Source: an uncultured Chloroflexia bacterium (GTDB lineage Bacteria; Chloroflexota; Anaerolineae; Anaerolineales; Anaerolineaceae). Taken from it: a stretch of DNA of 32,000 bases. The notes under the pieces were generated by a model. That model had not been told where the DNA came from, made no database searches, and saw only the letters and a list, made by a program, of their open reading frames with translations. The position numbers and the translations under genes were made by a program. The stretch is taken from positions 3,330,001 through 3,362,000 of the forward strand of contig OY969938.1 in NCBI GenBank assembly GCA_963704755.1, written 5' to 3'. Positions 3,214-20,764 of this stretch are shown piece by piece; the first letter of the stretch is position 1; the number at the start of each line of letters is the position of its first letter.

Positions 3214-3318
3214 CAAAAAGCGCCTTCCATTTGTTGGAAAGCGCCACAATCTTATTGCTAATTTTAGTGAAATAGAATCGGCCTAAACTTGTACCCGTAT
3301 ATACAACTCGGTCCGCGC
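3214..3318 (-). repeat. DT unit copy A (DUF35-tail mimic plus terminator hairpin)
   Basis: Minus strand reads GGA CCG AGT TGT ATA TAC GGG TAC AAG TTT AGG CCG ATT CTA TTT CAC TAA (GPSCIYGYKFRPILFH*) with no start codon. It is followed by the hairpin GCGCTTTCCA-N5-TGGAAGGCGC and T5. Confidence 0.7.
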
Positions 3319-3402
3319 CTAACGCACAGTGTCTATCGGATCATCGTTTTCTCTTTGTGGTTCGGTTCGCATTCATTTTCAACAAATCTCTTCGCAAACT
3401 GC

Positions 3403-3428
3403 GAACTTTTTCAGGTAGGATTCCGTAA
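3403..3428 (+). promoter_or_regulatory. ECF-type promoter candidate (GAAC-N17-CGTAA)
   Basis: GAAC at 3403-3406 and CGTAA at 3424-3428, about 30 nt upstream of the sigma factor ATG. This matches the general ECF -35 GAAC / -10 CGT pattern. Confidence 0.4.
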
Positions 3429-3459
3429 TAGCTTATTGAGTCCAACTGGTGAACCTTTG

Positions 3460-4029
3460 ATGACAGATCCTTTAAGTGATGAGCAGATTATTGCCCAGGT
3501 GATGCTGGGAAAACGAGCGTCCCTGGAGATCCTTGTAGAACGGTACCACAAGCTATTATTCGGTTACCTTTACCGTTTGACAAACGGCAACCGTCCCCTG
3601 GCGGAAGATCTGGTCCAGGAGACGTTCCTTCGCGTGCTCCAACAAGATTCCTATCAAACCCAACGGCCGTTCAAACCCTGGTTGTATTCGATTGCCACCC
3701 ATCTGGCTTACGATTATTTCCGTTCTGCACAGGCGCGACGAACGATCAATACAGATGAAAACGGCTTTTCCGATTGTGCCGATCCTCAGCCTGCTCCGGA
3801 AGAAATTGCACAGACAGTGGACGAGGGCGAAGTAATTGCGTCTGCGATTGGCCAGTTAGGAGAAGAGTATCGCGCCGCCTTATTTTTGCGATTTTATCAG
3901 GGATTATGTCTGCAAGAAATTGCCCAGACACTGCAGATCCCGCTGGGGACGGTGAAATCACGCCTTTCGGTAGGCGCCGCGCGCCTGCGGGAGCTTCTGG
4001 TGGATTATGAAAAAGGAGAAGAACGATGA
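3460..4029 (+). CDS. ECF (sigma-70 family group 4) RNA polymerase sigma factor
   Basis: Region 2 (LVERYHKLLFGYLYRL..AEDLVQETFLRV) and region 4 (LRFYQGLCLQEIAQTLQIPLGTVKSRL) are recognisable. Start trimmed to the internal ATG at 3460 because the 5' part of the track ORF runs through DT copy A. Confidence 0.85.
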   Translation: MTDPLSDEQIIAQVMLGKRASLEILVERYHKLLFGYLYRLTNGNRPLAEDLVQETFLRVLQQDSYQTQRPFKPWLYSIATHLAYDYFRSAQARRTINTDENGFSDCADPQPAPEEIAQTVDEGEVIASAIGQLGEEYRAALFLRFYQGLCLQEIAQTLQIPLGTVKSRLSVGAARLRELLVDYEKGEER

Positions 4030-4898
4030 AAGATTTCACCTATTCGTGGCCTTTGGATCAAGAGGACCATCTGGCAGACGCGCTGCGGGAACAAGGAACG
4101 CCGGAAGAGAAGATCCCCGAACTGACCCAATCCCTGATGCGGCTGAAGGAATGGCAGGCCCCCACCCTCACCGCTGGCGATTCCCGGCAGTTGGTCGAAC
4201 GTTTAGCCTCGCACCTGCCGGCAGTATCCGATATTCGCCGAGCAGTCCGCAACCATCCTCCGGGCCTTCTAGGCGAATTCGTAGATCTGCTCAGGTTGGT
4301 CCAGACCCAGGTCAGCCTGTTCCAGATGTCCTTCTGGTTGGCGTCATCGGTGATCATCCTGCTTGGCGGCCTGTTGATCCTGAGCGGCCCAATATTGAAC
4401 CCCACATTTTTGTTACAGGTGATCGGTCCTTTGCTTAGCTATCTTGGAATAGCCACGGCATTCCGAGGCAGCGGGTTGCACATGCTGGAATTCGAGCTGG
4501 CTTGCCCGCCCTCTCCACGCCAATTGACCCTGGCCCGCCTGGTGATTGTACTTTGTTACGATATCGCCCTGGGCCTCTTTTTGTCGCTCGTCCTTCGGGT
4601 TTCGAGTAATTTTAGCTTCTGGCTGATCACCCTGCACTGGTTGGCGCCACTCCTCCTGGGCACGGGATTGACCTTGCTGCTCTCTTTGCGCATTCCGGTC
4701 TCCCGGGCAGCAGTCATCAGTTACGTCGGCTGGCTGGTGGTCCTGGCTTCGGCGTTGATCGAACAGAACAGCGTGCAGACCTCGGTCAGCGTCTTCTCCG
4801 GCCTGACTGAACTGGGGTTTGGCCTGGCGGGCCTGGCAATGCTGGTTGGAGTGATCCTCTGGCTGCCGAAGACCGTTCAGTGCATGCTGCCTGGCTAG
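4026..4898 (+). CDS. Multi-pass membrane protein, putative anti-sigma factor
   Basis: The ATG overlaps the sigma stop (ATGA). About 90 aa of soluble N-terminus are followed by about six hydrophobic helices. No zinc anti-sigma motif was seen, so the call rests on position only. Confidence 0.45.
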   Translation: MKDFTYSWPLDQEDHLADALREQGTPEEKIPELTQSLMRLKEWQAPTLTAGDSRQLVERLASHLPAVSDIRRAVRNHPPGLLGEFVDLLRLVQTQVSLFQMSFWLASSVIILLGGLLILSGPILNPTFLLQVIGPLLSYLGIATAFRGSGLHMLEFELACPPSPRQLTLARLVIVLCYDIALGLFLSLVLRVSSNFSFWLITLHWLAPLLLGTGLTLLLSLRIPVSRAAVISYVGWLVVLASALIEQNSVQTSVSVFSGLTELGFGLAGLAMLVGVILWLPKTVQCMLPG

Positions 4899-5009
4899 TC
4901 GATACGGGCTGCGAACCTTTTTGCCAGCTTCTCCGTAACAGTTACTGCAGACGCTGATCGACCATTGTTCACGAAAACGAAGCGTGAAGCGGTCTGTAAA
5001 GGAGAATTC

Positions 5010-5930
5010 ATGCAAATAACTCAATCCAAAACTGGGGCAGGCGGGATCGTACCGATCCCTATCGAACCGGTCTCCGCCCTGACCAGAACCCTTCAAGTGA
5101 CTGGCTGGGAATGGAAGCATTTTCTCTCCAACCGGTCGAGCTGGATGATTGGCGGTGCGGCGTTCTGTTTTTTCACCGGGCTGCTCGCCGTACGTAACCA
5201 GTGGGGCGCTGTATTGGGGACGACAGCTCTGGGACAACTGGCTGAACTGGTGTACGACCTGATGCTGATTTTCGGTGTCATGCTCCCATTCCTGGTGACC
5301 GACCAGGTGGCTCACGACTACCAGGAGCGCATGCACGAACTGCTCATGACCACCGCTATTCCTACCAGCATCTACGTACTCGGGCGCTACCTGGCCGCAG
5401 TGTTGATCAGCTTTTGCCTGGGGCTGGCATTACTGGCGGCGCAGCTCCTGGTCAATCTGGCCTTACCGTTTATTTACCCAATCTATCCGGCGGTAAACGC
5501 TCTCACCACGCTGTCTCTGTGGGCGCGCCTGACCCTTCCGGCCGGGTTACTGGCCGGCAGCTTGTGTTTTTGCCTGGGGACACTCTTCCCTCGCGTCACG
5601 GCCGTCCCCAAAATTGCTACCAGCCTGGCCTGGGTCATCCTGGCGCTTGATAATGATCCTACCGACCTGACCTGGCGCGCTTATTGGAATCCCACCGGGG
5701 CTGGGATGATCACCCTGGCCTACAAACACTTCCAGGACCTGGCTGAAGCCGGTTTGAAGACGGCTCTCAATCCTGCCGGAGGATCGGAACTGATCTTACA
5801 CCTGCAGCAGAATCTCCCCGACCTGCAGCCCTGGTTGGCGCCGTTCCTGGCGCTGGCAGGGATCGGCCTGCTGCTGGGCCTCCTAACGGTGGCTGGTTTC
5901 CGGCGCTTTCGCAGCAGCATGAACGCTTGA
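5010..5930 (+). CDS. ABC-2 type transporter permease
   Basis: Hydrophobic ORF. AAGGAG lies 6 nt before ATG 5010. It is a paralogue of the next gene (VTDQVAHDYQERMHELLMTT vs VTEGASRDYRQRIHEVLMAT). Confidence 0.65.
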   Translation: MQITQSKTGAGGIVPIPIEPVSALTRTLQVTGWEWKHFLSNRSSWMIGGAAFCFFTGLLAVRNQWGAVLGTTALGQLAELVYDLMLIFGVMLPFLVTDQVAHDYQERMHELLMTTAIPTSIYVLGRYLAAVLISFCLGLALLAAQLLVNLALPFIYPIYPAVNALTTLSLWARLTLPAGLLAGSLCFCLGTLFPRVTAVPKIATSLAWVILALDNDPTDLTWRAYWNPTGAGMITLAYKHFQDLAEAGLKTALNPAGGSELILHLQQNLPDLQPWLAPFLALAGIGLLLGLLTVAGFRRFRSSMNA

Positions 5931-5940
5931 AGAGGAACCC

Positions 5941-6849
5941 ATGAAGACCAAACCATTTATTCTCAGCCGGGCGGATGATCTATCCGCGAACCCCCCCAGT
6001 CCTTTGTTCAGCGTCTGGGGATGGGAGTTGAAGCGTATATTTACTAAACCCTTGAATTGGGGATTCGCCCTGGGTAGTTTCCTCTTTTTTGGCGCGATGA
6101 TGTGGTTCAAACATGCCTGGACATTGGGGACGGAAAGTGGGACACGGTTTACCCTATACGGCACGAGCGCGTTCGGCCTGTTCTACGAATTCACCGTGGT
6201 CTTGATGCTGGTGTTTGCATTCATCCTGCCATTCGTGGTCACCGAAGGAGCTTCGCGGGATTACCGGCAGCGCATCCATGAGGTATTAATGGCCACTCCC
6301 CTGCCGGGCCAGGCGTACGTCTGGGGACGCTTCCTGGCCACCCTCACGCTTGCCATAGGGCAGGCAGTTCTGATGGTGGTTGCAGCGTGGTTGATGGGCA
6401 CGATCCTACACCTTCGAAACGGGTTCTACCCGCAGCCAACTTGGCCGAACCTGATCACTGCCTGGGGGCTGGTCGTCATCCCGGCGACGATCTTGATCGC
6501 AGGCCTGGGGTTCAGCTTGGGCACACTCTGGCCGCAGCGGACTCGCCTGATCATGCTGGGGTTGTTGATCGCCTGGTTATTATTCTTCACGGTAGGCGAC
6601 ATCTTGAGTGTCAATCCAACCGGTGTCAGTATATTAGGCACACAGATCTCCCGTCTGGTTCAGGCGGCAAACGCGCAGTTGGCCTCGATCCCGGCGGATC
6701 AGCAAGCCGCCTGGCTCGAACGGCTCCAGGTTGCCTCGCCAGATGTGAGCGGTTGGTGGCTGACCCAATACGCCCAGGCGGCGCTTGGGATTATATGCGT
6801 GGTCGTCGCTGCTGCCGGATTCCGGCGCTATCGAAAAGAAGTAGATTGA
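5941..6849 (+). CDS. ABC-2 type transporter permease (paralogue)
   Basis: 302-aa hydrophobic ORF with GAGGA upstream. It shares a loop motif with the preceding permease. Confidence 0.65.
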   Translation: MKTKPFILSRADDLSANPPSPLFSVWGWELKRIFTKPLNWGFALGSFLFFGAMMWFKHAWTLGTESGTRFTLYGTSAFGLFYEFTVVLMLVFAFILPFVVTEGASRDYRQRIHEVLMATPLPGQAYVWGRFLATLTLAIGQAVLMVVAAWLMGTILHLRNGFYPQPTWPNLITAWGLVVIPATILIAGLGFSLGTLWPQRTRLIMLGLLIAWLLFFTVGDILSVNPTGVSILGTQISRLVQAANAQLASIPADQQAAWLERLQVASPDVSGWWLTQYAQAALGIICVVVAAAGFRRYRKEVD

Positions 6850-6866
6850 AGAAAAGAGAGCCAAAA

Positions 6867-7751
6867 ATGGAACTGCACATCGAGCACTTGAGTAAACAAT
6901 ATGGCCGTCATCCGGCCTTGAAAGGGATTTCACTTACCTGCAGCAACGAAATGGTCGGGTTGGTTGGGCCGAATGGCGCCGGAAAGACCACCCTGATGCG
7001 CATCCTGGCCACCCTCATCCCCCAGACTGCCGGAAAAGTCACCTGGAACGGGAAGGATATCCATGAGGATCCGCAGGCCCTCCGCCGGGTGCTGGGTTAT
7101 TTACCCCAGGAATTCGGTCTCTATGAAGAATTCAGCGCGCGGCAGATCCTCCGTTACCTGGGTGCCATGAAAGGACTGCCGGATACACTCGCCCGGCGTA
7201 GGGTGGACGAATTGATCGAGCTGGTCAACCTGGAAAAAGACGCCGATCGCAAGCTTAAGACCTATTCGGGTGGGATGAAGCAGCGGGTTGGCATTGCACA
7301 GGCGCTCTTGAATGACCCGGAGCTGCTGATCGTCGACGAACCCACTGCTGGATTGGATCCGGCTGAGCGGGTACGCTTCCGCATGCTGCTTGCCAGCCTG
7401 ACCGCCGAGCGTCTGGTGATCCTCTCGACCCATATCATTGGTGACGTCGAGGCTGTCGCCAGCCGGCTGGTCGTGCTGAACCAGGGAGAAATTGTCTCCG
7501 ATACGCCCCCTGAAATGCTGTTGAGCGCCGCCAAAGGCCAGGTGTGGACGGTGACCACGGACCCCGAAACAGCCATTCGCATTCAGAGCGCTTATCAGGT
7601 GAGCGCGATGGTCCAGCAGCCGGGCGGCGTCATGCTACGGATCGCCAGTCACGAGCGCCCACACGAAAGTGCAGTTCCGGTGGAACCCACTTTGGAAGAT
7701 GCCTATTTACTGGTGGTTGGGGAACAATTGGAACAAGAAAAGAATTTGTAG
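6867..7751 (+). CDS. ABC transporter ATP-binding protein
   Basis: Walker A GPNGAGKTT, signature YSGGMKQRV and Walker B LLIVDEPTAGLD. Start trimmed to MELHIEHL (6867), because the track ORF 5' extension overlaps the permease. Confidence 0.9.
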   Translation: MELHIEHLSKQYGRHPALKGISLTCSNEMVGLVGPNGAGKTTLMRILATLIPQTAGKVTWNGKDIHEDPQALRRVLGYLPQEFGLYEEFSARQILRYLGAMKGLPDTLARRRVDELIELVNLEKDADRKLKTYSGGMKQRVGIAQALLNDPELLIVDEPTAGLDPAERVRFRMLLASLTAERLVILSTHIIGDVEAVASRLVVLNQGEIVSDTPPEMLLSAAKGQVWTVTTDPETAIRIQSAYQVSAMVQQPGGVMLRIASHERPHESAVPVEPTLEDAYLLVVGEQLEQEKNL

Positions 7752-7787
7752 TTAATGGGATGGTTTGGTAATCTTTTCGAAATAAAG

Positions 7788-7819
7788 CAGCGACCCGTTG
7801 AGATTTTCACGGGTCGCTG
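7788..7819 (+). terminator. Hairpin downstream of the ABC operon
   Basis: CAGCGACCCGT-N10-ACGGGTCGCTG, 37 nt after the stop. The T tract is weak. Confidence 0.45.
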
Positions 7820-7875
7820 TTGCATATTCATAGTATTTGAAAACGACCATAACTTAGCGATGATTTTGTCACAAA

Positions 7876-7980: not shown

Positions 7981-8005
7981 TAGAGAGGTCAAATTGCGAA
8001 TTGGT

Positions 8006-8581
8006 TTATTCCATTCCTTTCAAAGCACGCTCCAGCAAATCGCTTACTTTTAGTTCATTCGCCCATTTCTTCAAATAAATCAGGTCGAGCCCACTGGCGC
8101 GAGTTTTCAGTACACCAAGGATGTCACGCCATTGACGCTCAGACACCTCGCCGCCAAGACGATACCACTCGAGTTTTGCCAGGATCGTATCTTCAGGGCT
8201 GCTAAACTTTGCGCTTACCTCTTTCTCAAAAAGAAAGGTTTGCTTTTGAGCGCGGTCCAGTTGCAATTGTAAAAAGGGACGGGGATGAGGAATGAAAATA
8301 TCCACCTTGAACATGCTCTCACGATGGATGATGTTAAAACTGGAGTGGCGCTGTATGGATTGGGCAATCATCTCTTCATCCACATAGAATTCGTCTTGTT
8401 AGGCTGAAACAAACCGTTGAAGATGTTCCAATTGCATTTCTGCCACGATGTCTGAATCCTGGGTAGTTCGCACCATGCCATAAAGGGTGCTGGCAAGTGA
8501 ACCGCCAATAAAATATGGGATGTTTAGTTTTTCGAGAACCTGTGTGACCCGGATGGTGACTTCGATCGGTTCATTTTGCAT
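8006..8581 (-). pseudogene. Nucleotidyltransferase-fold protein interrupted by one in-frame TAA
   Basis: The N-terminal ORF (8399-8581) carries GGSLASTLYG..TQDSDIV (NTase GS..DxD pattern). The C-terminal ORF (8006-8383) is in the same frame. The halves are separated only by TAA at 8399-8401 plus 5 codons (..FVSA*QDEFYVDEEM..). Confidence 0.6.
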
Positions 8582-8825
8582 CGGGAAGGTCTCCATAGAC
8601 CTTACATGCGATTTCTTCACCAAGCAATAGGCCTGCCAGTCTGCGTTTTAGCTCGGCATCGCCAGCCAGGGGATATTGCTTCCGTAAACCGGCTAAGGCT
8701 AACAAACGGGCCGATTGGTTGAGCTGCGCCAACATTTGCATTTTCCGAGTGGGGCTCGCTGCCCGCCATAAATCAATTTGCAAGGCTTCCATTTTGGGAT
8801 GGGTATCCGGGAATAAGGCGGCCAT
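8571..8825 (-). CDS. Small conserved hypothetical protein, partner of the nucleotidyltransferase
   Basis: 84-aa ORF whose stop overlaps the NTase ATG (ATGCAAAATGA). This is a two-gene, TA-like layout. Confidence 0.5.
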   Translation of the reverse strand: MAALFPDTHPKMEALQIDLWRAASPTRKMQMLAQLNQSARLLALAGLRKQYPLAGDAELKRRLAGLLLGEEIACKVYGDLPDAK

Positions 8826-8949: not shown

Positions 8950-9054
8950 GAAGCACCCTCCATATTCAGGAAGGCGCTTTTGTAATCGGAATTTGCCGTG
9001 GACCAGCAAGCGCCGGGTTAAATTTATACACGGATATACGACTTGGTCCACACG
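8950..9054 (-). repeat. DT unit copy C (stop codon lost)
   Basis: Minus strand reads TGT GGA CCA AGT CGT ATA TCC GTG TAT AAA TTT AAC CCG.. (CGPSRISVYKFNPALAG..). It is followed by the hairpin AAGCGCCTTCC-N7-GGAGGGTGCTT. Confidence 0.65.
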
Positions 9055-9074
9055 GCTGATGTGAGAGTTTCAAT

Positions 9075-9200
9075 CTAACGGCTTGCTGGTGGGTGGGCGG
9101 GACGAGATAAAACTTCGAGAGCAGGATTCTATTCGGATGTAGAAAAAAGCCCGAAAATGGCGCGGAATCCCACCCGTCAAAAGCGTACTTTGTTGGGCGC
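9075..9200 (+). repeat. R2 repeat copy 1 (~130 nt)
   Basis: CTAACGGCTTGC..GGTGGGTGGGCGGG..~70 nt..TCCCACCCGTCAAAAGCGTACTTTGTTGGG. It aligns along its length with copy 2. Confidence 0.6.
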
Positions 9201-9271: not shown

Positions 9272-9748
9272 CTATTTCTTAGCATTTGCAAGGTGCTGTT
9301 GTGCGAGGGCGATAAATTGCTGTCTGTGTTCTGAACTTTTGAAAGCATTTTCTGGAATTGTGAATGCGTTTGAGTTCTTGCCAGTAATGATGACTCTATC
9401 TGGAGTTGTAGAAATGCTGTCAACGGCTTTCCAAAGGATTTTGTCTTCCTTCTTGCCAATTTTCGTTTCAATTCCTTCTTCGTTTATTGACAAAACTCTT
9501 TTCTGCGTTTTTGCGGTGACAAAACTTAAGCCAGGAATTGCCAAAATAATGCCAACGGCAAACATAATCGCAACGACAAAATCATTCAGGTTTAGATTGC
9601 CTTGAATGCAATAGTGGAGGAATAAATAATAAGCGGAAAATAAAAAAGCCGCCCCTAGAACAATCAATCTCGTTCTAGATGAGTTTCTGAGGTTGAAAAA
9701 ATATGCTTTGACCAAATCCATTCGCTTGATTCGATATTCAATGACCAT
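9272..9748 (-). CDS. YcxB-like membrane protein
   Basis: 158 aa with two N-terminal TM helices and then a soluble domain, the layout of the YcxB family. GGAG lies 6 nt upstream of the ATG. Confidence 0.55.
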   Translation of the reverse strand: MVIEYRIKRMDLVKAYFFNLRNSSRTRLIVLGAAFLFSAYYLFLHYCIQGNLNLNDFVVAIMFAVGIILAIPGLSFVTAKTQKRVLSINEEGIETKIGKKEDKILWKAVDSISTTPDRVIITGKNSNAFTIPENAFKSSEHRQQFIALAQQHLANAKK

Positions 9749-9779
9749 TATTGCTCCAATGTTTTATCGTATTTGTGCG

Positions 9780-9911
9780 CCCAACGGCTTGCGTTACCCG
9801 CGTGTGGGCGGGTGTGGGCGATGCCTGGGGGCAGGAAAAACCCGAAGCGAGGTAAATGTCAGAATAGCCGCACGCGAAGAGTCCCACCCATCAAGTGCAC
9901 GCTTTGTTGGG
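9780..9911 (+). repeat. R2 repeat copy 2
   Basis: CCCAACGGCTTGCGTTACCCGCGTGTGGGCGGG..GTCCCACCCATCAAGTGCACGCTTTGTTGGG. It is a direct repeat of copy 1 and the two flank the YcxB-like gene. Confidence 0.6.
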
Positions 9912-10087
9912 AGGACTTTTGGGGCTGAAATCAACCCCAAATGCATAACCGATACTTCCAAAAATTTTTAACAGCCTGGAGACTGGTTAAGTCGCCGCAT
10001 CGTGCCAGCCTGATAGACTGCGTTTTCCTTGAACGACAATCCGGGAAAGCTAGCAAAATAGCCATTTCGTGATGTCAGGCTTCGCCC

Positions 10088-10654
10088 CTAGGTCGGAAGT
10101 AGATCAGATAGCTGGTGCTCGAGTTCGTTGTAAACAGCGTCTGCCTCGGCTCCCAGGGCGTTGAATGTCTTGCTAGCAAAGCTACGCATCGTTGCCGTCA
10201 GCGTAATGTCGAGGATTTCAACATCTTCAAGACCCAACGCACGCAGCGCATCAACATCCGCTTGAGTCATTTCGTTGGCGTTCCGTGCAACTTTCTGGGC
10301 GAATTCCATCATTGCAACCTCAACGCTTTCCAACCCCGCGTCATGGAAATTTGTGAGGATCGCACGCAACTGATCTACACTGACCCCGTTCTTGTTCAAG
10401 ATTGCGCCATGAGCAAGCAGGCAGTAACGACAATTCAAGGCCATCGCAGCAGCGAACGTGACCAACTCGTAAGGTCTCAATCGCAAGTTCTTGCGAATGC
10501 TGGCTTGAAAGGTGCGCCATGCTTCCAACACCTCAGGGCGCAGGCTGAAGACTTTGGCGTGATTGGGCACGTACCCCATACTCTTTTGGTCGCCTTCGTA
10601 GATCTCAAGGAGCTTACCCTCAGCCCCCGCTTCCGAAATGGTTTGAATGTACAT
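10088..10654 (-). CDS. Carboxymuconolactone decarboxylase / AhpD-like family protein
   Basis: CxxC..H motif (NCRYCLLAHG) typical of the family. Start trimmed to MYIQT (10654), which has GGAGGA 5 nt upstream. Confidence 0.8.
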   Translation of the reverse strand: MYIQTISEAGAEGKLLEIYEGDQKSMGYVPNHAKVFSLRPEVLEAWRTFQASIRKNLRLRPYELVTFAAAMALNCRYCLLAHGAILNKNGVSVDQLRAILTNFHDAGLESVEVAMMEFAQKVARNANEMTQADVDALRALGLEDVEILDITLTATMRSFASKTFNALGAEADAVYNELEHQLSDLLPT

Positions 10655-10692
10655 GAATTCCTCCATTAATTCCTCGCTTGTCCTCTGTGCTG

Positions 10693-11215: not shown

Positions 11216-11368
11216 GGGGGAGCGCTTTTAATCAGGGATCGTTTGCAAATTTAAATTTACACTTTTTCATTATATAATCTGAGCGAGGCCACTCCCTCTC
11301 TAAAATTCGAAGGATTTTGCGCTTCCAGCGGGCAAAGCCGGTGAGGGCCAGGGATGGGCGGGGTGAAT

Positions 11369-11398
11369 TAAAAGCGCCCTCCATCTCTGAAGAGCGCC
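11369..11398 (-). terminator. DT-type terminator hairpin (copy D) after the methyltransferase gene
   Basis: AAAAGCGCCCTCCATCTCTGAAGAGCGC is 28/28 identical to the hairpin of DT copy B. It lies 12 nt after the stop at 11410. Confidence 0.7.
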
Positions 11399-11409
11399 TC
11401 TTCCTCATT

Positions 11410-12156: not shown

Positions 12157-12239
12157 TGTGAAAAAGTTACTTACAGGTGAATATAAGAAAATAGATCCCG
12201 CCCTCGTTAAAGTATACTTCCGAAAGAATCCGTTAATGA

Positions 12240-12306
12240 CAAAAACGCCCTCCATCGGGGGGTGCTTCTTCCGTGTCTTCGGTGTATTCCGTGGTTAAAT
12301 TTCTTG
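12240..12306 (-). repeat. Degenerate DT unit (copy E, internal deletion)
   Basis: Minus strand reads GGTGGATGACAAG-AAATTTAACCACGG. This resembles copy C (TGTGGACCAAG..TATAAATTTAACCCGG) minus about 16 nt. It is followed by the weak hairpin CACCCCCC-GAT-GGAGGGCG and T5. Confidence 0.35.
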
Positions 12307-12326
12307 TCATCCACCAGGAAAAGGCA

Positions 12327-12677
12327 TTACCCGTTGGCGCGGAAATATTTGGCGCGAATAAACGCATTCATTTTGTCGCGCGATGATGTTCCGTCACCTC
12401 GGTATGGCTGGACAGTTTCACAGGTTTCGTATTCTTCGCAAGTTGCACAAAAATCTTTGCCTTTCGCCAGCGCACATGAACGGATTGTACAGTGCGAGCA
12501 ATCTGTTGCTATAAGTTTTAGATCGGGATACTTGCAACCCAAACAGACAAAGTCGATCGCATCCGTTTTCTCATTACCGAATTCACGATTTATTTGATTA
12601 AGGAGGATGCCATTTCCAGTGACCGTCCCTTTGAATGAAGGACATTCTTCACAATTAATGCCGCAATGCGCAATCAT
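12327..12677 (-). CDS. DUF3795 domain (Cys-rich, metal-binding) protein
   Basis: Starts MIAHCGINCEECP.. and carries further CxxC pairs (CLGC, CSHCTIRSC, CATC). GGAGAG lies 5 nt upstream of ATG 12677. Confidence 0.7.
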   Translation of the reverse strand: MIAHCGINCEECPSFKGTVTGNGILLNQINREFGNEKTDAIDFVCLGCKYPDLKLIATDCSHCTIRSCALAKGKDFCATCEEYETCETVQPYRGDGTSSRDKMNAFIRAKYFRANG

Positions 12678-12845
12678 AGTTCTCTCCATCGGCAGCACGC
12701 TGAATCTCATCTGGCTATTGACTGAAAGGTCAGCCGTTTCATGAGCGACTGATTCGTTCCCGAAATATCGAAAAACCGCTAATAAGCCGCGCTGAATGCC
12801 GGCCTCTCGACAAAGCTCCCAGAGTCACATTATATTATGGGAATC

Positions 12846-12950
12846 AAAAAGCGCCCTCCAGAAATGGAAAGCGCTTCGTCTGTGTTTATCGTTTTTTTCT
12901 TGGTCTATCTCAAAACCGGCCGAAACTTATACCGATAGATTTGATTTACC
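12846..12950 (-). repeat. DT unit copy F
   Basis: Minus strand reads ATC TAT CGG TAT AAG TTT CGG CCG GTT TTG AGA TAG (IYRYKFRPVLR*). It is followed by the hairpin GCGCTTTCCA-N4-TGGAGGGCGC and T5. Confidence 0.65.
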
Positions 12951-12975
12951 GAATTTTTGGATAGTAATTTCTGCT

Positions 12976-13021: not shown

Positions 13022-13114
13022 TACGAACCCACCAACTTAATCCCTACATTAACATGACCCGGTAAATTGTTCTGGAAAACTTTATTTACAGTAAGCTAAA
13101 AGAGGACCAATGTT

Positions 13115-14071
13115 CTATAGAGCGAATTGTTCCAGTAGATCACGCGCTTGTGCTGCGACCGCCTTTTTCAACTCGCAAGGCTCCAAAATCTCTACAAAAC
13201 CAGACAGGCCAAAGACGAGCATTTTCGCCTGCAAGTCAGAATCCAGGGAGAGGGATATTGTCTTCCAGCCCCTATCCTCTGCATCGGCATTCATTTCCCA
13301 ACGCCCAGGCATTAGCGTTTTGACAAACGATATTCGGTCCGGGTGAACCCGTAGGGTGCAATGATAACCTGATGAAAAAATTTCCAGGTTCTGCGTGTGC
13401 GAACGCCAGTAAGTCGGCAGGTCAAAATCGGGGCGGCGCGTAAACGATCCATCGAGCAGTTGCATTGAATGAAAACGATTGACGCGATATATACGCAGCT
13501 CCCCGTCGCGTTCGGCGAGTAAATACCAAACACTCGACTTGCAAATCAGGCTATACGGGGCCAGCGTACGCTCTGCAATATCACCATCATAATTCTCGTA
13601 CTGTGCTTTGATCATTCTGTCTTCATATACAGCCCGCTGAATCTCCTCCCAAAAAGGCGAGATCGAAGCGTCATGCCACCACCACGTTGGGTCTATCATC
13701 AGGCGTTGGCGAATATGATCGGCGGTGGAATGATGCGCATTGGGCAGAGCCGCCAATAACTTAAGCAAGAGGCGTTCTCCGGCGTCCCCCAAACCCACGT
13801 CGCGCAAGGCTTCATTGTTGTTGGTGACGAACAGGCTTTGCACTTCTAACGTATTTAAGCCCGTTAGCGTAGTGCGATACGCCTCGGCGAGCGCAATCCC
13901 GCCTCCATGCCCGCCTTCGCTGTAAACAGGTACGCCTGAAAACGATAACGCATTGATATCGCGCAGGATCGTTCGGCGCGAGACCTCTAATTCTTCCGCC
14001 AATGCTTTGGCGGTCATCTTGCCGCGCGTTTGCAGCAATAGAATGATAGACAATAATCGGTCGGCTCGCAT
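13115..14071 (-). CDS. YafY-type HTH / WYL domain transcriptional regulator
   Basis: N-terminal HTH (MRADRLLSIILLLQTRGKMTAKALAEELEVSRRTILRDINAL) and a central WYL-type region (SVWYLLAERDGELRIYRVNRF). Start trimmed to M10, which has GAGGAA upstream. Confidence 0.85.
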   Translation of the reverse strand: MRADRLLSIILLLQTRGKMTAKALAEELEVSRRTILRDINALSFSGVPVYSEGGHGGGIALAEAYRTTLTGLNTLEVQSLFVTNNNEALRDVGLGDAGERLLLKLLAALPNAHHSTADHIRQRLMIDPTWWWHDASISPFWEEIQRAVYEDRMIKAQYENYDGDIAERTLAPYSLICKSSVWYLLAERDGELRIYRVNRFHSMQLLDGSFTRRPDFDLPTYWRSHTQNLEIFSSGYHCTLRVHPDRISFVKTLMPGRWEMNADAEDRGWKTISLSLDSDLQAKMLVFGLSGFVEILEPCELKKAVAAQARDLLEQFAL

Positions 14072-14158
14072 CGCGTTTTCCTCATTCTTGGGTGACATAA
14101 GGTGTCACCCAATGAAATGTATCATCAAAATATATCAGAAAACAAAAGGAAAAACGAA

Positions 14159-14983
14159 ATGATAAAAACAACTAAAAATTATTTTGATTTGGGGGATGGG
14201 CAATTGTATTACGAGACTGCAGGCACGGGAATACCGCTTGTTTTATCGCATGCCGCCTTCCTGGACAGCGGAATGTTCGATGCCATCTGGGAGCAGTTGG
14301 CCAAAGAGTTCCGTGTGATTCGATACGACCTGCGCGGCTTCGGGAAGTCCAGCCCAGTACCGAGTCCGCTTGCAAGGCGTTACGATCTGGACCGCCTGTT
14401 AGCCCACCTGGACGTGGATCATGCGCATCTGGTTGGTTGTTCCCTCAGCGGAGAGATCTGTCTCGATCTGGCGCTCGAACAACCGCATCGTTTCAGATCC
14501 TTAACCCTGGTGGGCTCAACCCCGAGCGGCTTTCAAATGCAAGGAGAACCTCCGCGCAATTTATTGGAAATGTTTGCCGCTTTGCAAAGCGGCAATTTTG
14601 ACCACGCCAACGAACTTCAAATCCGTATCTGGCTGGACGGTGAACATCGGGAACCAGGCCAGGTCGACTTGAATTTACGAAAAAAAGCATTAGAGATGAA
14701 TCGGATTCCTGTAACCCAAAATACGTTCTTTATCTCCGATATGCAACCAACTCACCCACTTGACCCACCCGCCATTACCCGATTGGAATCGGTCATATGT
14801 CCTACATGGATTGTCGCCGGAGCGCTCGATAATTCCGAGGTCTTGCGCGCGGCTGATGAAATGGTCAAACGGATTCCCAACGCGCGAAAAACGATTATCG
14901 AATCCACCGGGCATGTTCCCAGCTACGAACAGCCCGATATTTTTGTCAAAATGTTACTGGATTTTCTGAGCAGAATTAATTAA
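14159..14983 (+). CDS. Alpha/beta hydrolase
   Basis: Nucleophile elbow GCSLSG and C-terminal His (STGHVP). Start trimmed to MIKTT (14159), which has AAGGA upstream. Divergent from the WYL regulator. Confidence 0.85.
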   Translation: MIKTTKNYFDLGDGQLYYETAGTGIPLVLSHAAFLDSGMFDAIWEQLAKEFRVIRYDLRGFGKSSPVPSPLARRYDLDRLLAHLDVDHAHLVGCSLSGEICLDLALEQPHRFRSLTLVGSTPSGFQMQGEPPRNLLEMFAALQSGNFDHANELQIRIWLDGEHREPGQVDLNLRKKALEMNRIPVTQNTFFISDMQPTHPLDPPAITRLESVICPTWIVAGALDNSEVLRAADEMVKRIPNARKTIIESTGHVPSYEQPDIFVKMLLDFLSRIN

Positions 14984-15275
14984 TCTAAGGTGCTGCCTTA
15001 TCTAAAAACCCATTCATTTTTCATTCCCGAAGGACAACGGGACAGTGTACGGTGGGCTTTATTGGCAACGAAGCAATCTCAATTCATACCCAGGCGATTG
15101 CTTCGAAAGACTCCCGCCATGTACCCTCACAGAAGCCAGGCAGAGTTGGGAGGATAGGAGGGGGGTGGGTGAAAGCAAAATGTTAAGTTTAATAAATATT
15201 TTGTATTTCACACCGCAGACCACCCCCTCTGGCATCCCACCCATTTTCAAAAAACAGAAAATGGAGGAGAAAACC

Positions 15276-15380
15276 AAAAAGGCGCCCTCCACGCATTCGC
15301 GGAGAGCGCCTCATCATTTTTAAAAATTCTTACTGCATTACCGGCTGGAACTTGTACCCGTACATCCGACTCGGTCCACA
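15276..15380 (-). repeat. DT unit copy G
   Basis: Minus strand reads TGT GGA CCG AGT CGG ATG TAC GGG TAC AAG TTC CAG CCG GTA ATG CAG TAA (CGPSRMYGYKFQPVMQ*) with no start codon. It is followed by the hairpin GGCGCTCTCC-N10-GGAGGGCGCC and T5. Confidence 0.75.
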
Positions 15381-15597
15381 AGGCTTGGATATTGTTGACG
15401 GTATAACAAATTAAAATGATCTTATCGCGCTTTTGTACTATATTGCTGAAACCAGCCTGTAATCTCATCCAGAGAGCGTTGAGATTGAGCGTAGGCCAAT
15501 GTAAACCGGACCATCTCAGCATTTTCAACAACCAACCGATAGCCATTAAATCTCAAGGACAGCGCAACGCAGTGATTAATGAGCATTGAAAGTTTCG

Positions 15598-16524
15598 TCA
15601 ATTGAAAGACTGCCGAAACTCCGAAGGCGAAAGGTTGGTTTTTGCCTTGAATAATTTACTGAAAGACTGAGGATGTTCAAATCCTAATTGAAAGGCAATT
15701 TCAGTGACTGATAAATCGGTTGTGGACAGTCTTTCTTTTGCCTTTTCGATAAGTTTGTCATGGATGAGTTGTTGCGTGTTTTGTCCCGTTAACGTTTTAA
15801 GTAAACCGCTCAAGTAGTTGGGCGACACGCTCAGTTTTTCGGCGATGGATTTGACCGTGGGGAGCCCTTTTTCCACCAGATCTTCACTATTGAAATATTC
15901 TGCGAGAATCTCCTCCAATTGGTTTAAAATTGCATGGTTGGTTATTTTTCTGGTGATAAATTGACGTTGATAGAATCTTTCCGCATACGTCAATAGCAAT
16001 TCTATTTGAGCGATGATGATGTTTTGACTGAACTTGTCTATATTGGAGTGATATTCCTGCTTAATGCCTGACAGGATGCTGATAATTGTTGCTTCTTCTT
16101 TTTCTGAAAGGAACAACGCTTCATTGACCGAATAATCAAAATATTCATACTGCTTGATGGTTTTTGCTAACTGTGTATTCCAGAGAAAATCGGGATGGAT
16201 GAGTAAAATCCATCCCGATTGTTTGTGCGCTGCGTTTTGTTCGACCTCAACTCGAAAAACCTGGCCCGGAGCCAGAAAGAACATGATGCCACCATCAAAA
16301 TCATATTCTTGCTGACCATATTTCATCTTGGCGCTTAAATCCCGTTTCAGCGAGATGGAATAAAAGTCAAGCACAAAACTTAAAGGATTATTTTCAGGCG
16401 TATGTTTGATCGCCCCATAATCCACAACACTAATCAAGGGATGCTCCGGTTCGGGCAACCCTCTTAATCGATGAAACTCGCTGATCGTCTTAATTCGGTA
16501 AGGTTTTACGTTCTTCAGGTTCAT
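15598..16524 (-). CDS. AraC family transcriptional regulator
   Basis: C-terminal double HTH (..VKSIAEKLSVSPNYLSGLLK.. / ..VTEIAFQLGFEHPQSFSKLFK..). Start trimmed to MNLKN (16524), 7 nt after the NmrA-like stop. The region is AT-rich. Confidence 0.85.
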   Translation of the reverse strand: MNLKNVKPYRIKTISEFHRLRGLPEPEHPLISVVDYGAIKHTPENNPLSFVLDFYSISLKRDLSAKMKYGQQEYDFDGGIMFFLAPGQVFRVEVEQNAAHKQSGWILLIHPDFLWNTQLAKTIKQYEYFDYSVNEALFLSEKEEATIISILSGIKQEYHSNIDKFSQNIIIAQIELLLTYAERFYQRQFITRKITNHAILNQLEEILAEYFNSEDLVEKGLPTVKSIAEKLSVSPNYLSGLLKTLTGQNTQQLIHDKLIEKAKERLSTTDLSVTEIAFQLGFEHPQSFSKLFKAKTNLSPSEFRQSFN

Positions 16525-16531
16525 AGAATAC

Positions 16532-17428
16532 TCATTTTTGATTATAGATAGATGCAAATTCTTTTGCAAAGTTAGTCAGCTTTACTTTGCCCAACACGGG
16601 GTGATTACAGTAATAGTCTTCAAACAATTGACCGGTGTGCATAGCGGCATTCATCTCAACAAATCCGGCGGCAAGTTGTGGGTTGAAGCCTGCCGCGATC
16701 AAGCCGTTTAGCATTTGTTCATCCGAAACAACAATCCATTTCAAATCGGGCTTTCCAATAGCTGCGCCTAAAATGCTGGCGGTTTCACTGCAGGCCAATT
16801 CCTCGCTTGCCACATAGCGCACTTTTCTGCCAGCGGACGGCGTGCCTAATTCTTCAGCCACGGCAGTGGCAATATCGAGGTGTGAAACCCACGGAATGAT
16901 ATCGTCCCCACCATAGTTTGACACAATCATACTCTGTGTTTTTATCGTGTTTACAAAACTCAACAAATTGTAGTAGAAACCAACAGGACGTACAAACATA
17001 ATCGCTACGTCAGGCGGAAGTTTCTTCAGAATATTCTCTACATTGTGGTGAAAATTAAGCACGCCGTTTCCTTGATCGGTATGCGCGCCAATACTGCTAA
17101 GATGAACCACGTGCTTCACGTTCGTTCGACGAATTGCGTCCGCGTATTTGTTGCCAAGCTTATCATAATACCTTCTCAGGTCAAAATTGTGATCCAAGAA
17201 ACTGACAGGCGGTTCCATACAATACACTGCATCTGCGCCTGTAAACGTAGTTGTAAGAAATTTTACATCTTCGATAGAGCCGATGGCAGCAGTAGCGCCC
17301 AAAGCTTCAATATCTTTTTGTTTTTCCGGTTTACTGCTGATCACTGTAACCAAATGTCCTTTTTGCACTAATTCCTTTGTTAGCGGCTTGCTGATATGCC
17401 CTAAAGAACCCGTTAACGTAACTCTCAT
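16532..17428 (-). CDS. NmrA-like / atypical SDR NAD(P)-binding protein
   Basis: N-terminal Rossmann motif (VTLTGSLGHISK). AAGGAG lies 7 nt upstream of the ATG. Confidence 0.8.
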   Translation of the reverse strand: MRVTLTGSLGHISKPLTKELVQKGHLVTVISSKPEKQKDIEALGATAAIGSIEDVKFLTTTFTGADAVYCMEPPVSFLDHNFDLRRYYDKLGNKYADAIRRTNVKHVVHLSSIGAHTDQGNGVLNFHHNVENILKKLPPDVAIMFVRPVGFYYNLLSFVNTIKTQSMIVSNYGGDDIIPWVSHLDIATAVAEELGTPSAGRKVRYVASEELACSETASILGAAIGKPDLKWIVVSDEQMLNGLIAAGFNPQLAAGFVEMNAAMHTGQLFEDYYCNHPVLGKVKLTNFAKEFASIYNQK

Positions 17429-17594
17429 GCTGATTCTCCTTTTCTCAAGAAAATTCTACGGAGAAAAAGAGGAACTGTCTTAATCAAATCTACGATTGTT
17501 GTAGTCAAAACAAATGGTTTTTCTGATTGGGCTGAGTGTACTTGTCGAAAAACCTTTTCGTGTTCATATCGATCACATAACCTCTTTTTTCTAA

Positions 17595-17628
17595 AACAAA
17601 AAGCGCCACCTGTTTTATAGGTGGCGCT
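17595..17628 (-). terminator. Intrinsic terminator of the DUF35 gene (DT-type hairpin, copy H)
   Basis: Minus strand reads AGCGCCACCT-N7-AGGTGGCGCT followed by TTTTTGTTTT, 26 nt after the stop. Confidence 0.8.
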
Positions 17629-17653
17629 TTCGATTTCATTATAAAAGGGGCTT

Positions 17654-18052
17654 TTATCTCAAAATTGGTCGGAACTTATACCCGTACACGATAATCCCGC
17701 TGGCGTCGCCGTCATTGCGGATTTTCCTGGTGACCATCTCCACCGGCATGCCGATTTGCACTTCCTGACCGTCCAGGTCGGTGAGTTGGGCGGTGACGAC
17801 CGGGCCTTCCTCTAACTTGACCAGCGCCACGGTGTATGGAGCACTCTGCTCAAAGCCGGCCGGGGCTTCGGTGACGTTGGTGAACGAATAGACTTCTCCC
17901 TTGCCGCTAAAGGTAAAGGTGGTTCGGGCGTCGTTACCGCAGTGGGGGCATACGTCGCGCGGCGGGAATATTTTGCCTTCGCAGTGCGGGCAAATCTCTC
18001 CAACCAGGGCATATCGTTGTTGTCGCAGACGCCAGTGGCGTGGAATTTCCAT
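17654..18052 (-). CDS. DUF35 Zn-ribbon/OB-fold protein (thiolase/HMG-CoA synthase partner)
   Basis: Zn ribbon CPHCEGK..CPHCG followed by an OB-fold region. AAGGAG lies 7 nt upstream. It sits in the same operon direction as the thiolase and HMGCS genes. Confidence 0.85.
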   Translation of the reverse strand: MEIPRHWRLRQQRYALVGEICPHCEGKIFPPRDVCPHCGNDARTTFTFSGKGEVYSFTNVTEAPAGFEQSAPYTVALVKLEEGPVVTAQLTDLDGQEVQIGMPVEMVTRKIRNDGDASGIIVYGYKFRPILR

Positions 18053-20742: not shown

Positions 20743-20764
20743 AGATAGCCTCATAAAATTAACC

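Follow-up and report, generated by a model that had tools for sequence, protein, structure and literature searches.

The 32,000-nucleotide stretch analysed here (hereafter the window; contig OY969938.1, positions 3,330,001 to 3,362,000, assembly GCA_963704755.1, an uncultured Chloroflexia bacterium of the Anaerolineae) carries a mevalonate operon of the order HMGR-HMGS-thiolase-DUF35, the last gene of which encodes a protein with a Zn-ribbon and an OB fold. Downstream of the DUF35 gene lies a 14-kb stack of modules of unrelated gene content, separated by units that resemble the 3' end of the DUF35 gene followed by a terminator. The stack includes two canonical attC sites, an attI-like half-site and two cassettes, along with several multi-gene modules that are not cassette-like. 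The GC content ranges from 0.43 to 0.59 across the stack, as compared with 0.63-0.66 in the mevalonate operon. The features identified are listed below; related loci and contigs used for comparison, including contigs from Logan, are designated by L and a number.

Features of the DUF35 locus and of the downstream stack (positions within the window)
Position	Strand	Feature	Observations
17654..18052	-	Resident DUF35 gene, the insertion target	Pfam OB_ChsH2_C 1e-21 and zf-ChsH2; operon genes at 20828-22108, 19669-20811 and 18506-19660
17597..17686	-	Unit R: resident core plus tail (17686-17654, YGYKFRPILR-stop) and bidirectional terminator (17630-17597)	attL-type junction
15400..17596	-	Module 1: NmrA-like gene (16532-17428), AraC regulator (15598-16569), Doc/Fic-like C-terminal fragment (about 15400-15546)	Pfam, the fragment by reading; GC 0.43; identical arrangement in Logan contig L001
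15274..15377	-	Unit A: arm GGACCGAGTCGGAT (15377-15363), core plus tail YGYKFQPVMQ-stop (15362-15330), terminator (15312-15274)	attR-type junction
13098..14983	.	Module 2: alpha/beta hydrolase (14102-14983, plus strand) and WYL regulator (13115-14098, minus strand)	Pfam; 90.4% identical over 1888 nt to L040 13707-15594, which also sits between tail units, although the two DUF35 proteins are only 75% identical
12845..12937	-	Unit B: core plus tail YRYKFRPVLR-stop (12937-12905), terminator (12877-12845)	Lacks the GGACCGAGTCGGAT arm; a different or decayed arm type
12240..12306	-	Deleted unit: shortened C-type tail remnant plus terminator-like hairpin (12268-12240)	Between the DUF3795 gene (12327-12710) and the methyltransferase gene (11410-12255)
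11368..11400	-	Hairpin-only unit (terminator)	Immediately after the methyltransferase stop codon
10692..10850	-	Promoter-like stretch plus attI-like half-site (...GTAACGCAAACCG/TTGGGC, 10729-10692)	Start of an attC-bounded cassette run; by eye resembles the segment about 200 nt after the DUF35 stop in L013 and L036; L063 and L028 carry a similar half-site at the same position
10088..10690	-	Cassette 1: carboxymuconolactone-decarboxylase-family ORF	Pfam CMD 6e-11
9779..9912	-	attC site 1 (134 nt)	R'' TCCCAAC, L''/L' stem, R' GTTGGGC
9272..9748	-	Cassette 2: YcxB-like ORF	Pfam YcxB 4e-6
9073..9198	-	attC site 2, the last of the run	R'' GCCCAAC ... R' GTTAGAT; the same GTTAGAT ending precedes the arm in related loci
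8951..9072	-	Unit C: 23-nt spacer (9072-9050), arm GGACCAAGTCGTAT (9049-9035), degenerate core plus tail (..VYKFNPALAGPR.., 9034-8996), decayed terminator (8981-8951)	
8005..8825	-	Module of three small ORFs (8571-8825, 8399-8623, 8006-8383)	76-82% identical to segments in L040, L056, L076, L120, L156 and L210; lies between two tail copies in L040 and directly follows one in L056
7877..7976	-	Unit D: arm (7976-7962), core plus tail YGYKFHPVMQ-stop (7961-7929), terminator (7909-7877)	
3289..7751	+	Module: ECF sigma factor, an unknown ORF, two ABC-2 permeases, ABC ATPase	Pfam; transcribed opposite to DUF35; GC 0.55-0.59; not cassette-like
3214..3314	-	Unit E, the outermost: arm GGACCGAGTTGTAT (3314-3300), core plus tail YGYKFRPILFH-stop (3299-3264), terminator (3245-3214)	

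Repeated gene-end and terminator units

The repeated units noted in the preliminary description are real. A search of the 32 kb for the core TACGGGTATAAGTTCC, allowing up to 3 mismatches, returned five matches (17686-17671, 15362-15347, 12937-12922, 7961-7946 and 3299-3284), the first of which is the resident core, and a search for the hairpin arm GGAGGGCGCTTTTTG, allowing up to 2 mismatches, also returned five (15290-15276, 12859-12845, 11382-11368, 7891-7877 and 3228-3214). All the matches are on the minus strand and lie downstream of the gene. Shuffled sequences gave an expectation of 0.10 for the core, with 0 of 100 shuffles reaching five matches, and of 0.11 for the hairpin arm. The more degenerate copy C (9054-8950) and the deleted copy (12306-12240) were read directly, the latter resembling by eye a shortened C-type tail (AAATTTAACC...ACGG) followed by the hairpin. 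For the hairpin-only copy, a relative (L094) carries a homologous methyltransferase gene (84% identity) followed by a spacer and the full arm, core, tail and terminator, so the copy in the window is a deletion derivative that has lost arm, core and tail. Of the five strongest terminator-like hairpins predicted in 3-18.2 kb, four are units R, A, D and E and the fifth is the opposite-strand reading of R; the stems carry G-U pairs that work only on the minus-strand RNA.

The tails are conserved at the protein level (YGYKF.P...stop) with synonymous changes, and copies A, C, D and E share a 14-nt upstream arm, GGACCGAGTCGGAT, that is absent from the resident gene; neither feature had been recognised in the preliminary description. 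An in-frame TAG that had been described as preceding copy B was not found within 15 codons upstream of it, the copies with nearby in-frame stops being D and E. The reported absence of integrase and transposase genes from 1-17.6 kb was confirmed for the longer ORFs by Pfam searches, and tblastn detected no IntI-like match, neither intI nor a remnant of it, in the window. The reported differences in base composition were also confirmed.

Integron components in the window and in related loci

The tail units themselves are not attC sites, in agreement with the earlier account. However, the canonical attC sites of the window had been overlooked, and such sites were also found in the relatives. An alignment of 15 sites folds into R''/R', an unpaired spacer, L''/L' and a bulge, with compensatory changes in 9 of 19 pairs.

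In related Anaerolineae loci, the same tail and terminator directly abut the 3' end of a convergent, bona fide integron integrase gene (intI). A complete element is present in one 3.1-kb contig (L104), which carries DUF35, tail, terminator, an intact intI on the opposite strand, attI (..CATAG/TTAGCCC, the slash marking the crossover position), one cassette, attC (G/TTAGAT), spacer, arm, core, a second tail and a terminator. In L155, the arm, tail and terminator abut an intact intI that scores 487 bits against TIGR02249 (cut-off 265). L215/L216 and L217/L218 have an intact intI convergent with, and 75-84 nt from, the resident DUF35, while L219 has the tail plus the same terminator beside intI even without a DUF35 gene. 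C-terminal intI remnants lie next to tails in L012, L092, L111, L180 and L191, N-terminal remnants lie next to attI in L005, L007, L099, L120 and L134, and L122 has an internally deleted copy. On the other hand, 18 of 20 elements lying between a resident gene end and the first arm lack intI, and IntI relatives also occur at sites with no DUF35 tail (L213, L214, L221 and L222).

The arm is widespread, with at least 120 metagenome contigs carrying the arm plus core exactly. The 45 nt upstream of the arm have the consensus ..GGTAA...AACCG/TTAGAT plus spacer, and a strict attC 3' half-site lies within 70 nt in 32 of 126 cases, 30 of them exactly 24 nt from the arm. The 128 arms are joined to 86 distinct ORF-like tails, which vary mainly at third codon positions and end in a stop within about 3-10 codons. 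Several arm units have 7-12 kb of upstream sequence without DUF35, one of which (L107) follows housekeeping genes. Other types of duplication also exist, with longer gene-like left arms of 60-200 nt (L040, L056 and L116) and with a second arm family (L046, L050 and L077); the core is therefore not the only boundary used.

Tail variability, junction mapping and polymorphism

The 120 closest DUF35 homologues are all invariant up to YGYKFRP and hypervariable after it, and their tails include the types seen as displaced copies in the window (VMQ-stop, VLAGPR-stop, ILFH.. and ILR-stop). Extra same-strand tail copies are carried by 21 of 67 related genome loci. Comparison of third codon positions showed that the arm-linked cores are homogeneous at core nt 3, 6 and 9 (C 0.87, G 0.93 and T 0.89), while the resident genes show 0.55, 0.61 and 0.75 at the same positions (Fisher p = 8e-7, 1e-7 and 0.017, respectively). 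From nt 12 onward the two sets are indistinguishable (p = 0.63 and 0.54). The switch from element-type to host-type sequence is thus sharp and places the junction between core nt 6 and 12, which argues for repeated site-specific insertion. The junction, however, lies 1-6 nt to the left of the G/TT expected for a canonical IntI crossover, and the similarity between the arm plus core and attI is only marginal (p = 0.001-0.23 per attI tested).

A comparison of the region downstream of DUF35 in relatives revealed polymorphism in the occupancy of the site. L212, with a DUF35 of 97% amino acid and 89% nucleotide identity, has a single cassette between the gene and the arm where the window has 14 kb. 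The sharing of the WYL and hydrolase module with L040, despite the divergence of the DUF35 proteins, is a further instance of module sharing between genomes.

Probable origin of the stack

The most likely explanation, with a probability of roughly 0.7, is that the 14-kb region is a stack of about six integron-type elements, each of which integrated in turn, by site-specific recombination, at the same point inside the YGYKF-coding core of the DUF35 3' end. A complete element, as seen in relatives, consists in order of the right part of the core with a replacement tail and stop codon, a terminator, intI on the opposite strand and convergent with DUF35, attI, attC-bounded cassettes, the last attC ending in G/TTAGAT, a spacer of roughly 24 nt, the arm GGACCGAGTCGGAT and the left part of the core. 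In this view, insertion would fuse the host gene to the tail and terminator of the element, so that DUF35 stays intact, and would leave the arm joined to the previous tail and terminator at the far end; the next insertion would use the regenerated gene end, so that older junctions move outward. Every element in the window would since have lost intI and most would have lost attI. Only the segment 11400-8951 keeps an attI-like site and two attC-bounded cassettes, and the locus now resembles a CALIN array mixed with non-cassette cargo. This suggests that whole integrons, usually thought immobile on their own, can move as units.

The analysis directly establishes the repeats, their protein-like tails, the attC sites with their covariation, the adjacency of intI in relatives, the wide spread of the arm, the sharp junction, and the sharing and polymorphism of modules between genomes. 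The site-specific nature of the recombination, the order of arrival (newest next to the gene), the loss of intI by deletion and the identity of the enzyme are inferred from sequence comparisons; IntI, the only recombinase found inside complete elements, is the prime candidate, acting in cis for complete elements and in trans for those lacking intI. Several observations on the window weaken this reading, namely the absence of detectable intI, the retention of attC or attI-like sites in only one of the six modules, and the presence of modules that are multi-gene, run in both orientations and are not cassette-like, such as the ECF/ABC operon, WYL plus hydrolase and NmrA plus AraC. The lack of intI in 18 of the 20 elements next to a resident gene end, the other types of duplication, the arm units without upstream DUF35, the IntI relatives at sites with no DUF35 tail, the position of the junction and the marginal similarity of the arm plus core to attI also count against it.

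The interpretation in the preliminary description is borne out only in part. Its proposal that elements inserted repeatedly at one site in the DUF35 3' end, each supplying a replacement tail and terminator and pushing the earlier tail outward, is supported, and mobilisation in trans remains possible. The locus is, however, not unrelated to integrons; in relatives the units are the two borders of an integron platform carrying a true intI.

Comparison with described systems

Sedentary chromosomal integrons and CALIN arrays (Cury et al. 2016, PMC4889954) share with the present loci an intI with the IntI-specific domain (in the relatives), an attI ending in G/TTRRRY, attC sites of R''/L''/L'/R' architecture, small co-oriented ORFs and the frequent loss of intI leaving attC clusters, and integrons were already recorded in Chloroflexi. 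Here, the whole platform is flanked by direct repeats of the 3' end of a host gene, carries a replacement gene tail and terminator, and occurs in tandem stacks. Known integron platforms are regarded as immobile unless they ride on a transposon or plasmid.

Integrative elements that target the 3' end of a gene and accrete in tandem include ICESt1/ICESt3 and CIMEs at fda in Streptococcus thermophilus, tRNA-gene islands, and phage 21 or e14 at icd. In these, attL and attR are likewise direct repeats, the element restores the gene end, repeated use of the regenerated site builds arrays, and integrase-less members persist between att sites. The present elements differ in that no phage-type integrase or conjugation module is present, the only recombinase in complete elements is an integron integrase, and elements can be as small as about 0.8-2.4 kb.

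IntI-mediated insertion of cassettes at non-classical genomic attG sites (bioRxiv 10.1101/2022.09.11.507474) also places an integron recombination product in the chromosome outside attI or attC. In that case, single cassettes reportedly insert through their attC at relaxed sites, and duplication of a gene end is not known to occur, while here the inserted unit includes intI and attI, uses one defined site and duplicates the core. The integrons of Xanthomonas (bioRxiv 10.1101/2025.06.18.660453) show a lineage-wide association with one housekeeping gene and frequent intI decay. They are fixed next to ilvD, in what is reportedly interpreted as one ancient acquisition, and displaced gene ends, stacks or arm-tail recombinants are not known to have been reported for them.

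Alternative explanations

A less likely possibility is that the architecture is as described above but the recombinase is not IntI, an unidentified host or helper tyrosine or serine recombinase encoded elsewhere inserting and excising elements that carry the arm-core-tail site, with integrons merely as frequent cargo. The lack of intI in most elements and in the window, the many modules that are not cassettes, the position of the junction away from the canonical G/TT, and the second arm family and longer-repeat variants would fit this view. However, in the minimal complete element (L104) intI is the only recombinase gene between the two junctions, the tail plus terminator is physically linked to the intI 3' end in L104, L155, L215-L219 and several remnants, and the consensus just upstream of the arm is the integron crossover motif G/TTAGAT plus a conserved spacer.

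It is unlikely that site-specific activity is absent altogether, with one ancient illegitimate insertion of an integron into the DUF35 end having created the arm junction and the structure having then spread and stacked by RecA-dependent homologous recombination, either through Campbell-type integration of circles carrying a DUF35 3' fragment or through double crossovers after transformation. The duplications with long gene-like arms (L040, L056 and L116) look like products of homologous recombination, and the conserved terminator offers about 30 nt of homology. However, the arm-linked sequence switches from homogeneous to host-like diversity within about 6 nt inside the core, and the available homology to the left of that point is at most 12 nt, too short for RecA. 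The 86 different tails also keep coding-type variation and stop codons, and were therefore displaced after long service as real gene ends, in many separate events.

Local tandem duplication and divergence of the DUF35 3' end, with unrelated genes inserted later between the copies, is very improbable. Units A and D are 92% identical over 50 nt, but the copies carry an arm absent from the gene, each has a different tail type that is found as the resident tail in other genomes, and the same arm occurs in at least 120 unrelated contigs. A generic genome-wide terminator or REP-like repeat with a chance resemblance to the DUF35 end can be all but dismissed, for although the hairpin arm GGAGGGCGCTTTTTG behaves as an ordinary intrinsic terminator, within the 32 kb it occurs only in the stack and only on the DUF35 strand, the units carry a translatable DUF35 C-terminus with synonymous variation, and in related loci the features are almost exclusively co-oriented with DUF35.

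Genomic context and the repeat units of the DUF35 locus

A mevalonate operon is located on the minus strand of the window and comprises the genes for HMG-CoA reductase, HMG-CoA synthase and thiolase and the DUF35 Zn-ribbon/OB-fold gene (see the table). The closest DUF35 proteins belong to Anaerolineae such as Bellilinea, Thermanaerothrix and Anaerolinea, and the exact protein is encoded on a 4.87-Mb contig. Downstream of DUF35, at lower coordinates, the longer ORFs were found by Pfam searches to encode regulators, transporters, hydrolases, a methyltransferase and small unknown proteins, and none of them carries an integrase or a transposase domain.

The recurrence of the DUF35 gene end together with a terminator, as put forward in the preliminary description, was confirmed. 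The 16-nt core of the gene end (up to 3 mismatches) and the hairpin arm (up to 2 mismatches) each match five times, only on the minus strand and only at or downstream of DUF35, whereas about 0.1 matches are expected by chance. Eight units were read directly, namely the resident unit R, units A, B, C, D and E, a deleted copy and a hairpin-only copy. Four of the five strongest terminator-like hairpins in 3-18.2 kb are units R, A, D and E, the fifth being the opposite-strand reading of R. In frame with the core, the copies read YGYKFRPILR, YGYKFQPVMQ, YRYKFRPVLR, YGYKFHPVMQ and YGYKFRPILFH, each followed by a stop codon, with synonymous differences that include CGA/CGG/AGG for Arg and TTG/CTA for Leu; thus, they were once translated gene ends. 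Copies A, C, D and E share an upstream arm, GGACCGAGTCGGAT, which the resident gene lacks. They therefore look like attR-type junctions (element arm, core and older tail), while the resident end looks like an attL-type junction.

The possibility of a REP-like or generic dispersed repeat had been named beforehand as a reading that would overturn the description. Such a repeat would be present in many copies in both orientations and unrelated to one gene, while within the window and in the related loci the copies are strand-specific and lie downstream of DUF35.

Positions of the features in the window and in related loci (L numbers)
Sequence	Position	Strand	Feature
Window	20828-22108	minus	HMG-CoA reductase gene
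Window	19669-20811	minus	HMG-CoA synthase gene
Window	18506-19660	minus	Thiolase gene
Window	18146-18510		Periodic repeats in the spacer between the thiolase stop and the DUF35 start
Window	17654-18052	minus	DUF35 Zn-ribbon/OB-fold gene
Window	15546-15400	minus	C-terminal fragment resembling a Doc/Fic toxin
Window	~11180-10870	minus	Fragments resembling a DUF559-type endonuclease pseudogene
Window	10729-10692		attI-like half-site
Window	9912-9779		attC site, part of the 15-site alignment
Window	9198-9073		attC site
Window	8005-8825		Three-ORF module
Window	28174-29097		182-nt tandem repeat
L040	10247-13613		Array of modules separated by repeats of the DUF35 3' end
L214	7980-8978		Intact intI near a mevalonate diphosphate decarboxylase gene
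L046	17527		Right-end arm of the second family
L050	19580		Right-end arm of the second family
L077	6131		Right-end arm of the second family
L072	4419 and 10379		Right-end arms of the second family
L022	14416		Right-end arm of the second family

Occurrence in related genomes and metagenomes

All 120 nearest DUF35 homologues are invariant through YGYKFRP and differ after it, and their tails include those observed as displaced copies in the window. A total of 80 related genome loci were obtained; of the 67 with at least 1 kb of downstream sequence, 21 have further same-strand tail copies and 10 carry the arm. In a metagenome scan for the arm plus core, at least 120 contigs were identified, containing 128 arm instances joined to 86 different tails, nearly all of which end in a stop after a few codons. 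Variation among these tails is concentrated at third codon positions.

Integron features of the locus

A conserved element of about 130 nt lies upstream of the arm, beginning with GCCCAAC and ending with GTTAGAT, which are the R'' and R' boxes of attC. An attC site is characterised by R'' (RYYYAAC), L''...L' and R' (GTTRRRY) in an imperfect palindrome with extrahelical bases, and the window has two full sites of this type about 0.6 kb apart and an attI-like half-site, which together bound a CMD-family cassette and a YcxB-like cassette. The related locus L008 has an array of five such sites separating single co-oriented ORFs, and the loci L002 and L007 have classical 70-nt attC sites. An alignment of 15 sites gives the expected fold with R boxes, an unpaired spacer, L boxes and a bulge, and 9 of 19 pairs show compensatory changes. 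This test of alignment and covariation replaced two other approaches. MFE folding of single attC sites was uninformative, with z scores from -0.4 to -2.0, while a scan for R''/R' pairs returned 7 hits against 1-8 in shuffled sequences, a false-positive rate equal to the signal. A loose attC 3' motif with up to 3 mismatches is only about twice enriched downstream of DUF35 and was not used for counts.

The tail-terminator units themselves have no RYYYAAC...GTTRRRY frame, and their hairpin is a G-U-containing terminator followed by a T-run. The preliminary description was thus correct that these units are not attC sites, although its interpretation is only partly supported, since the locus is an integron locus. 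No IntI-like match or intI remnant was detected in the window (tblastn, E<0.5), so that a complete integron is not represented there. The attI-like site of the window is a half-site only, whereas relatives show a conserved intI-proximal region ending in ..ATAG/TTAGGC or TTAGCC (the slash marks the crossover point), and its role as a putative attI, where cassettes enter at G/TTRRRY, is inferred from sequence alone. With two full attC sites, a half-site and no intI in 32 kb, the window in its present state qualifies as a CALIN, defined by two or more clustered attC sites with no integron integrase nearby (Cury et al. 2016, PMC4889954). The organisation expected of a cassette array, with co-oriented, mostly single and promoterless ORFs each followed by an attC, is observed at 10.7-9.07 kb (the CMD and YcxB cassettes), but the other modules show both orientations, operons and regulators. 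Fragments that look, by eye, like a DUF559-type endonuclease pseudogene lie between the hairpin-only unit and the attI-like site. A C-terminal fragment resembling a Doc/Fic toxin (..NGYRLVVENAEMVRF..) ends just upstream of arm A and suggests a truncated toxin-antitoxin cassette.

Other origins for the arm were also considered. Rfam at gathering thresholds and ARAGORN found nothing in the window, which gives no support for a structured RNA or tRNA origin. No long ORF ends just before the arm in any locus, and the conserved stretch at that position turned out to be an attC 3' half. No resemblance to the dif consensus was seen that would indicate a dif/Xer-type site. The arm is absent from IMG/VR, and a plasmid BLAST search hit only intI genes, so that carriage by phages or plasmids is not indicated.

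The tail units as borders of an integron platform

A complete element is present in a single 3.1-kb contig, L104, in the order thiolase end, DUF35 (tail VLAGPQ and a stop), a terminator, an intact intI on the opposite strand, attI (..CATAG/TTAGCCC), one cassette, attC (G/TTAGAT), a spacer, the arm, the core, a second tail (VGLGTAR and a stop) and a terminator. In the related locus L155, the arm, tail and terminator abut an intact intI, the product of which is an integron integrase by NCBIfam (TIGR02249, 487 bits against a cut-off of 265). An IntI1 sequence served only as a search probe, and all conclusions rest on the L155 protein and the NCBIfam result. A 260-aa ORF fragment that looks, by eye, like an IS110-family transposase sits beside the integron on the attI side in L155.

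Seven full-length relatives (75-89% identical) were examined. Two of these, L215/L216 and L217/L218, are intact, lie convergent with and 75-84 nt from the resident DUF35, and have a co-oriented ORF array on the other side. One, L219, has the tail and the same terminator beside intI without a DUF35 gene, and four are elsewhere with no tail. In L214, an intact intI of the same clade lies near a gene for mevalonate diphosphate decarboxylase, another mevalonate-pathway gene, without any DUF35 tail. C-terminal intI remnants lie next to tails and N-terminal remnants next to attI in a dozen loci, and one copy is internally deleted. The 120 best database matches to the IntI N-terminal fragment are all truncated proteins of 85-160 aa from many phyla, and the contexts examined were not next to DUF35; decayed intI genes of this clade appear to be very common. 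The hairpin-only unit of the window is explained by the related locus L094, in which the homologous methyltransferase cassette is followed by a full arm unit.

Evidence for a fixed crossover point

In 110 distinct arm-linked cores, the third-position nucleotides at core nt 3, 6 and 9 are far more uniform than in 80 resident genes (C 0.87 vs 0.55, G 0.93 vs 0.61 and T 0.89 vs 0.75), with Fisher p values of 8e-7, 1e-7 and 0.017, which are not corrected for relatedness of the sequences. From nt 12 onward the two sets do not differ. The junction therefore lies between nt 6 and 12 (GTATAAG), slightly to the left of the canonical IntI G/TT. The displaced tails keep coding-type variation and were therefore real gene ends until displaced, in many separate events. 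Homology to the left of the junction is at most 12 nt, which is short for RecA-mediated recombination.

Polymorphism and transfer of the modules

No near-identical strain with an empty site was found, the contig L001 being identical to the window. The relative L212 (DUF35 97% identical in aa and 89% in nt) has one cassette between the gene and an arm unit, followed by an unrelated flank. The WYL plus hydrolase module of the window is 90% identical to one in the related locus L040, also lying between tail units, although the DUF35 proteins are only 75% identical. The three-ORF module recurs in six other loci. The GC content is 0.43-0.59 in the stack and 0.63-0.66 in the operon.

Probable mechanism and significance

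The locus works like a gene-3'-end-targeting integrative element that accretes in tandem, while its parts are those of an integron. It carries direct repeats derived from the target gene (attL/attR), with the gene end restored by the element. However, no phage-type integrase was found next to an att site; only IntI occurs in complete elements, and neither an IntI-like match nor, among the longer ORFs scanned with Pfam, an integrase domain is present in the window. No description of DUF35-linked integrons or of integron platforms flanked by gene-end repeats was found in the literature, within the limits of the library searched.

The repeats, the attC sites, the linkage of tails to intI in relatives and the confinement of the junction to a few nucleotides are direct observations, whereas the site-specific nature of the recombination, the enzyme responsible and the function of the attI and arm-core-tail sites are inferred. 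IntI is the leading candidate enzyme but is unproven. Of 20 elements between a resident end and the first arm, 18 lack intI, and several modules are not cassette-like. Similarity between the arm plus core and attI is marginal, being significant for two of seven attI regions only, and is retained as a weak lead. Some arm units have 7-12 kb of upstream sequence without DUF35, one of which (L107) follows SerS and DnaB, and this could reflect long stacks, rearrangement or other sites. Other repeat types were also observed, with long gene-like arms in the related loci L040, L056 and L116. In L040, an array of modules of about 1 kb is separated by 85-185-nt repeats of the DUF35 3' end that include 45-120 nt of coding sequence upstream of the core, and no attC sites or intI remnants were detected in that stretch. 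In addition, a second family of right-end arms (GCGGGGTAYATATCYRGTR plus core) is joined to DUF35 tails in L046, L050, L077, L072 and L022. More than one element lineage therefore uses the same core.

A more far-reaching possibility, which remains doubtful on present evidence, is that the integron integrase itself carries out a classical double-strand attP x attB-type reaction between the arm-core-tail site beside its own gene and the DUF35 3' end. A minimal platform of about 1.35 kb (intI, attI and this site) would then be a self-integrating element that replaces the end of a housekeeping gene, and elements without intI would be moved in trans. In this view, integron platforms would be mobile in their own right, IntI would have a second natural substrate class and Anaerolineae would use DUF35 as a dedicated docking site for stacked accessory DNA.

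Integron platforms are treated as fixed chromosomal features unless carried by transposons or plasmids, and the locus bears on the question of how they reach their chromosomal positions. Here, a whole platform appears to have entered the same nucleotide position of a conserved gene many times, in many Anaerolineae lineages, carrying a spare gene end so that the target survives. The arm-core-tail site and the DUF35 3' end provide defined substrates for the question whether IntI or a partner enzyme can move the platform itself. The site explains a variable region in bacteria that are common in digesters and sediments, and the last residues of many annotated DUF35 proteins would be element-derived. 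The locus also illustrates how CALIN arrays can form by in-place decay of stacked integrons.

Other repeats in the window

Two further repeats were observed outside the stack. A 182-nt tandem repeat is present in about 4-5 copies with 81-93% matching, and each unit holds, by eye, several GC-rich inverted repeats, with no matching Rfam family. The spacer between the thiolase stop and the DUF35 start is filled with about 360 nt of 8-nt periodic repeats (GTGTCnnn / GTTTTnnn on the minus strand), whereas the 89%-identical relative L212 has only a 157-nt spacer there.
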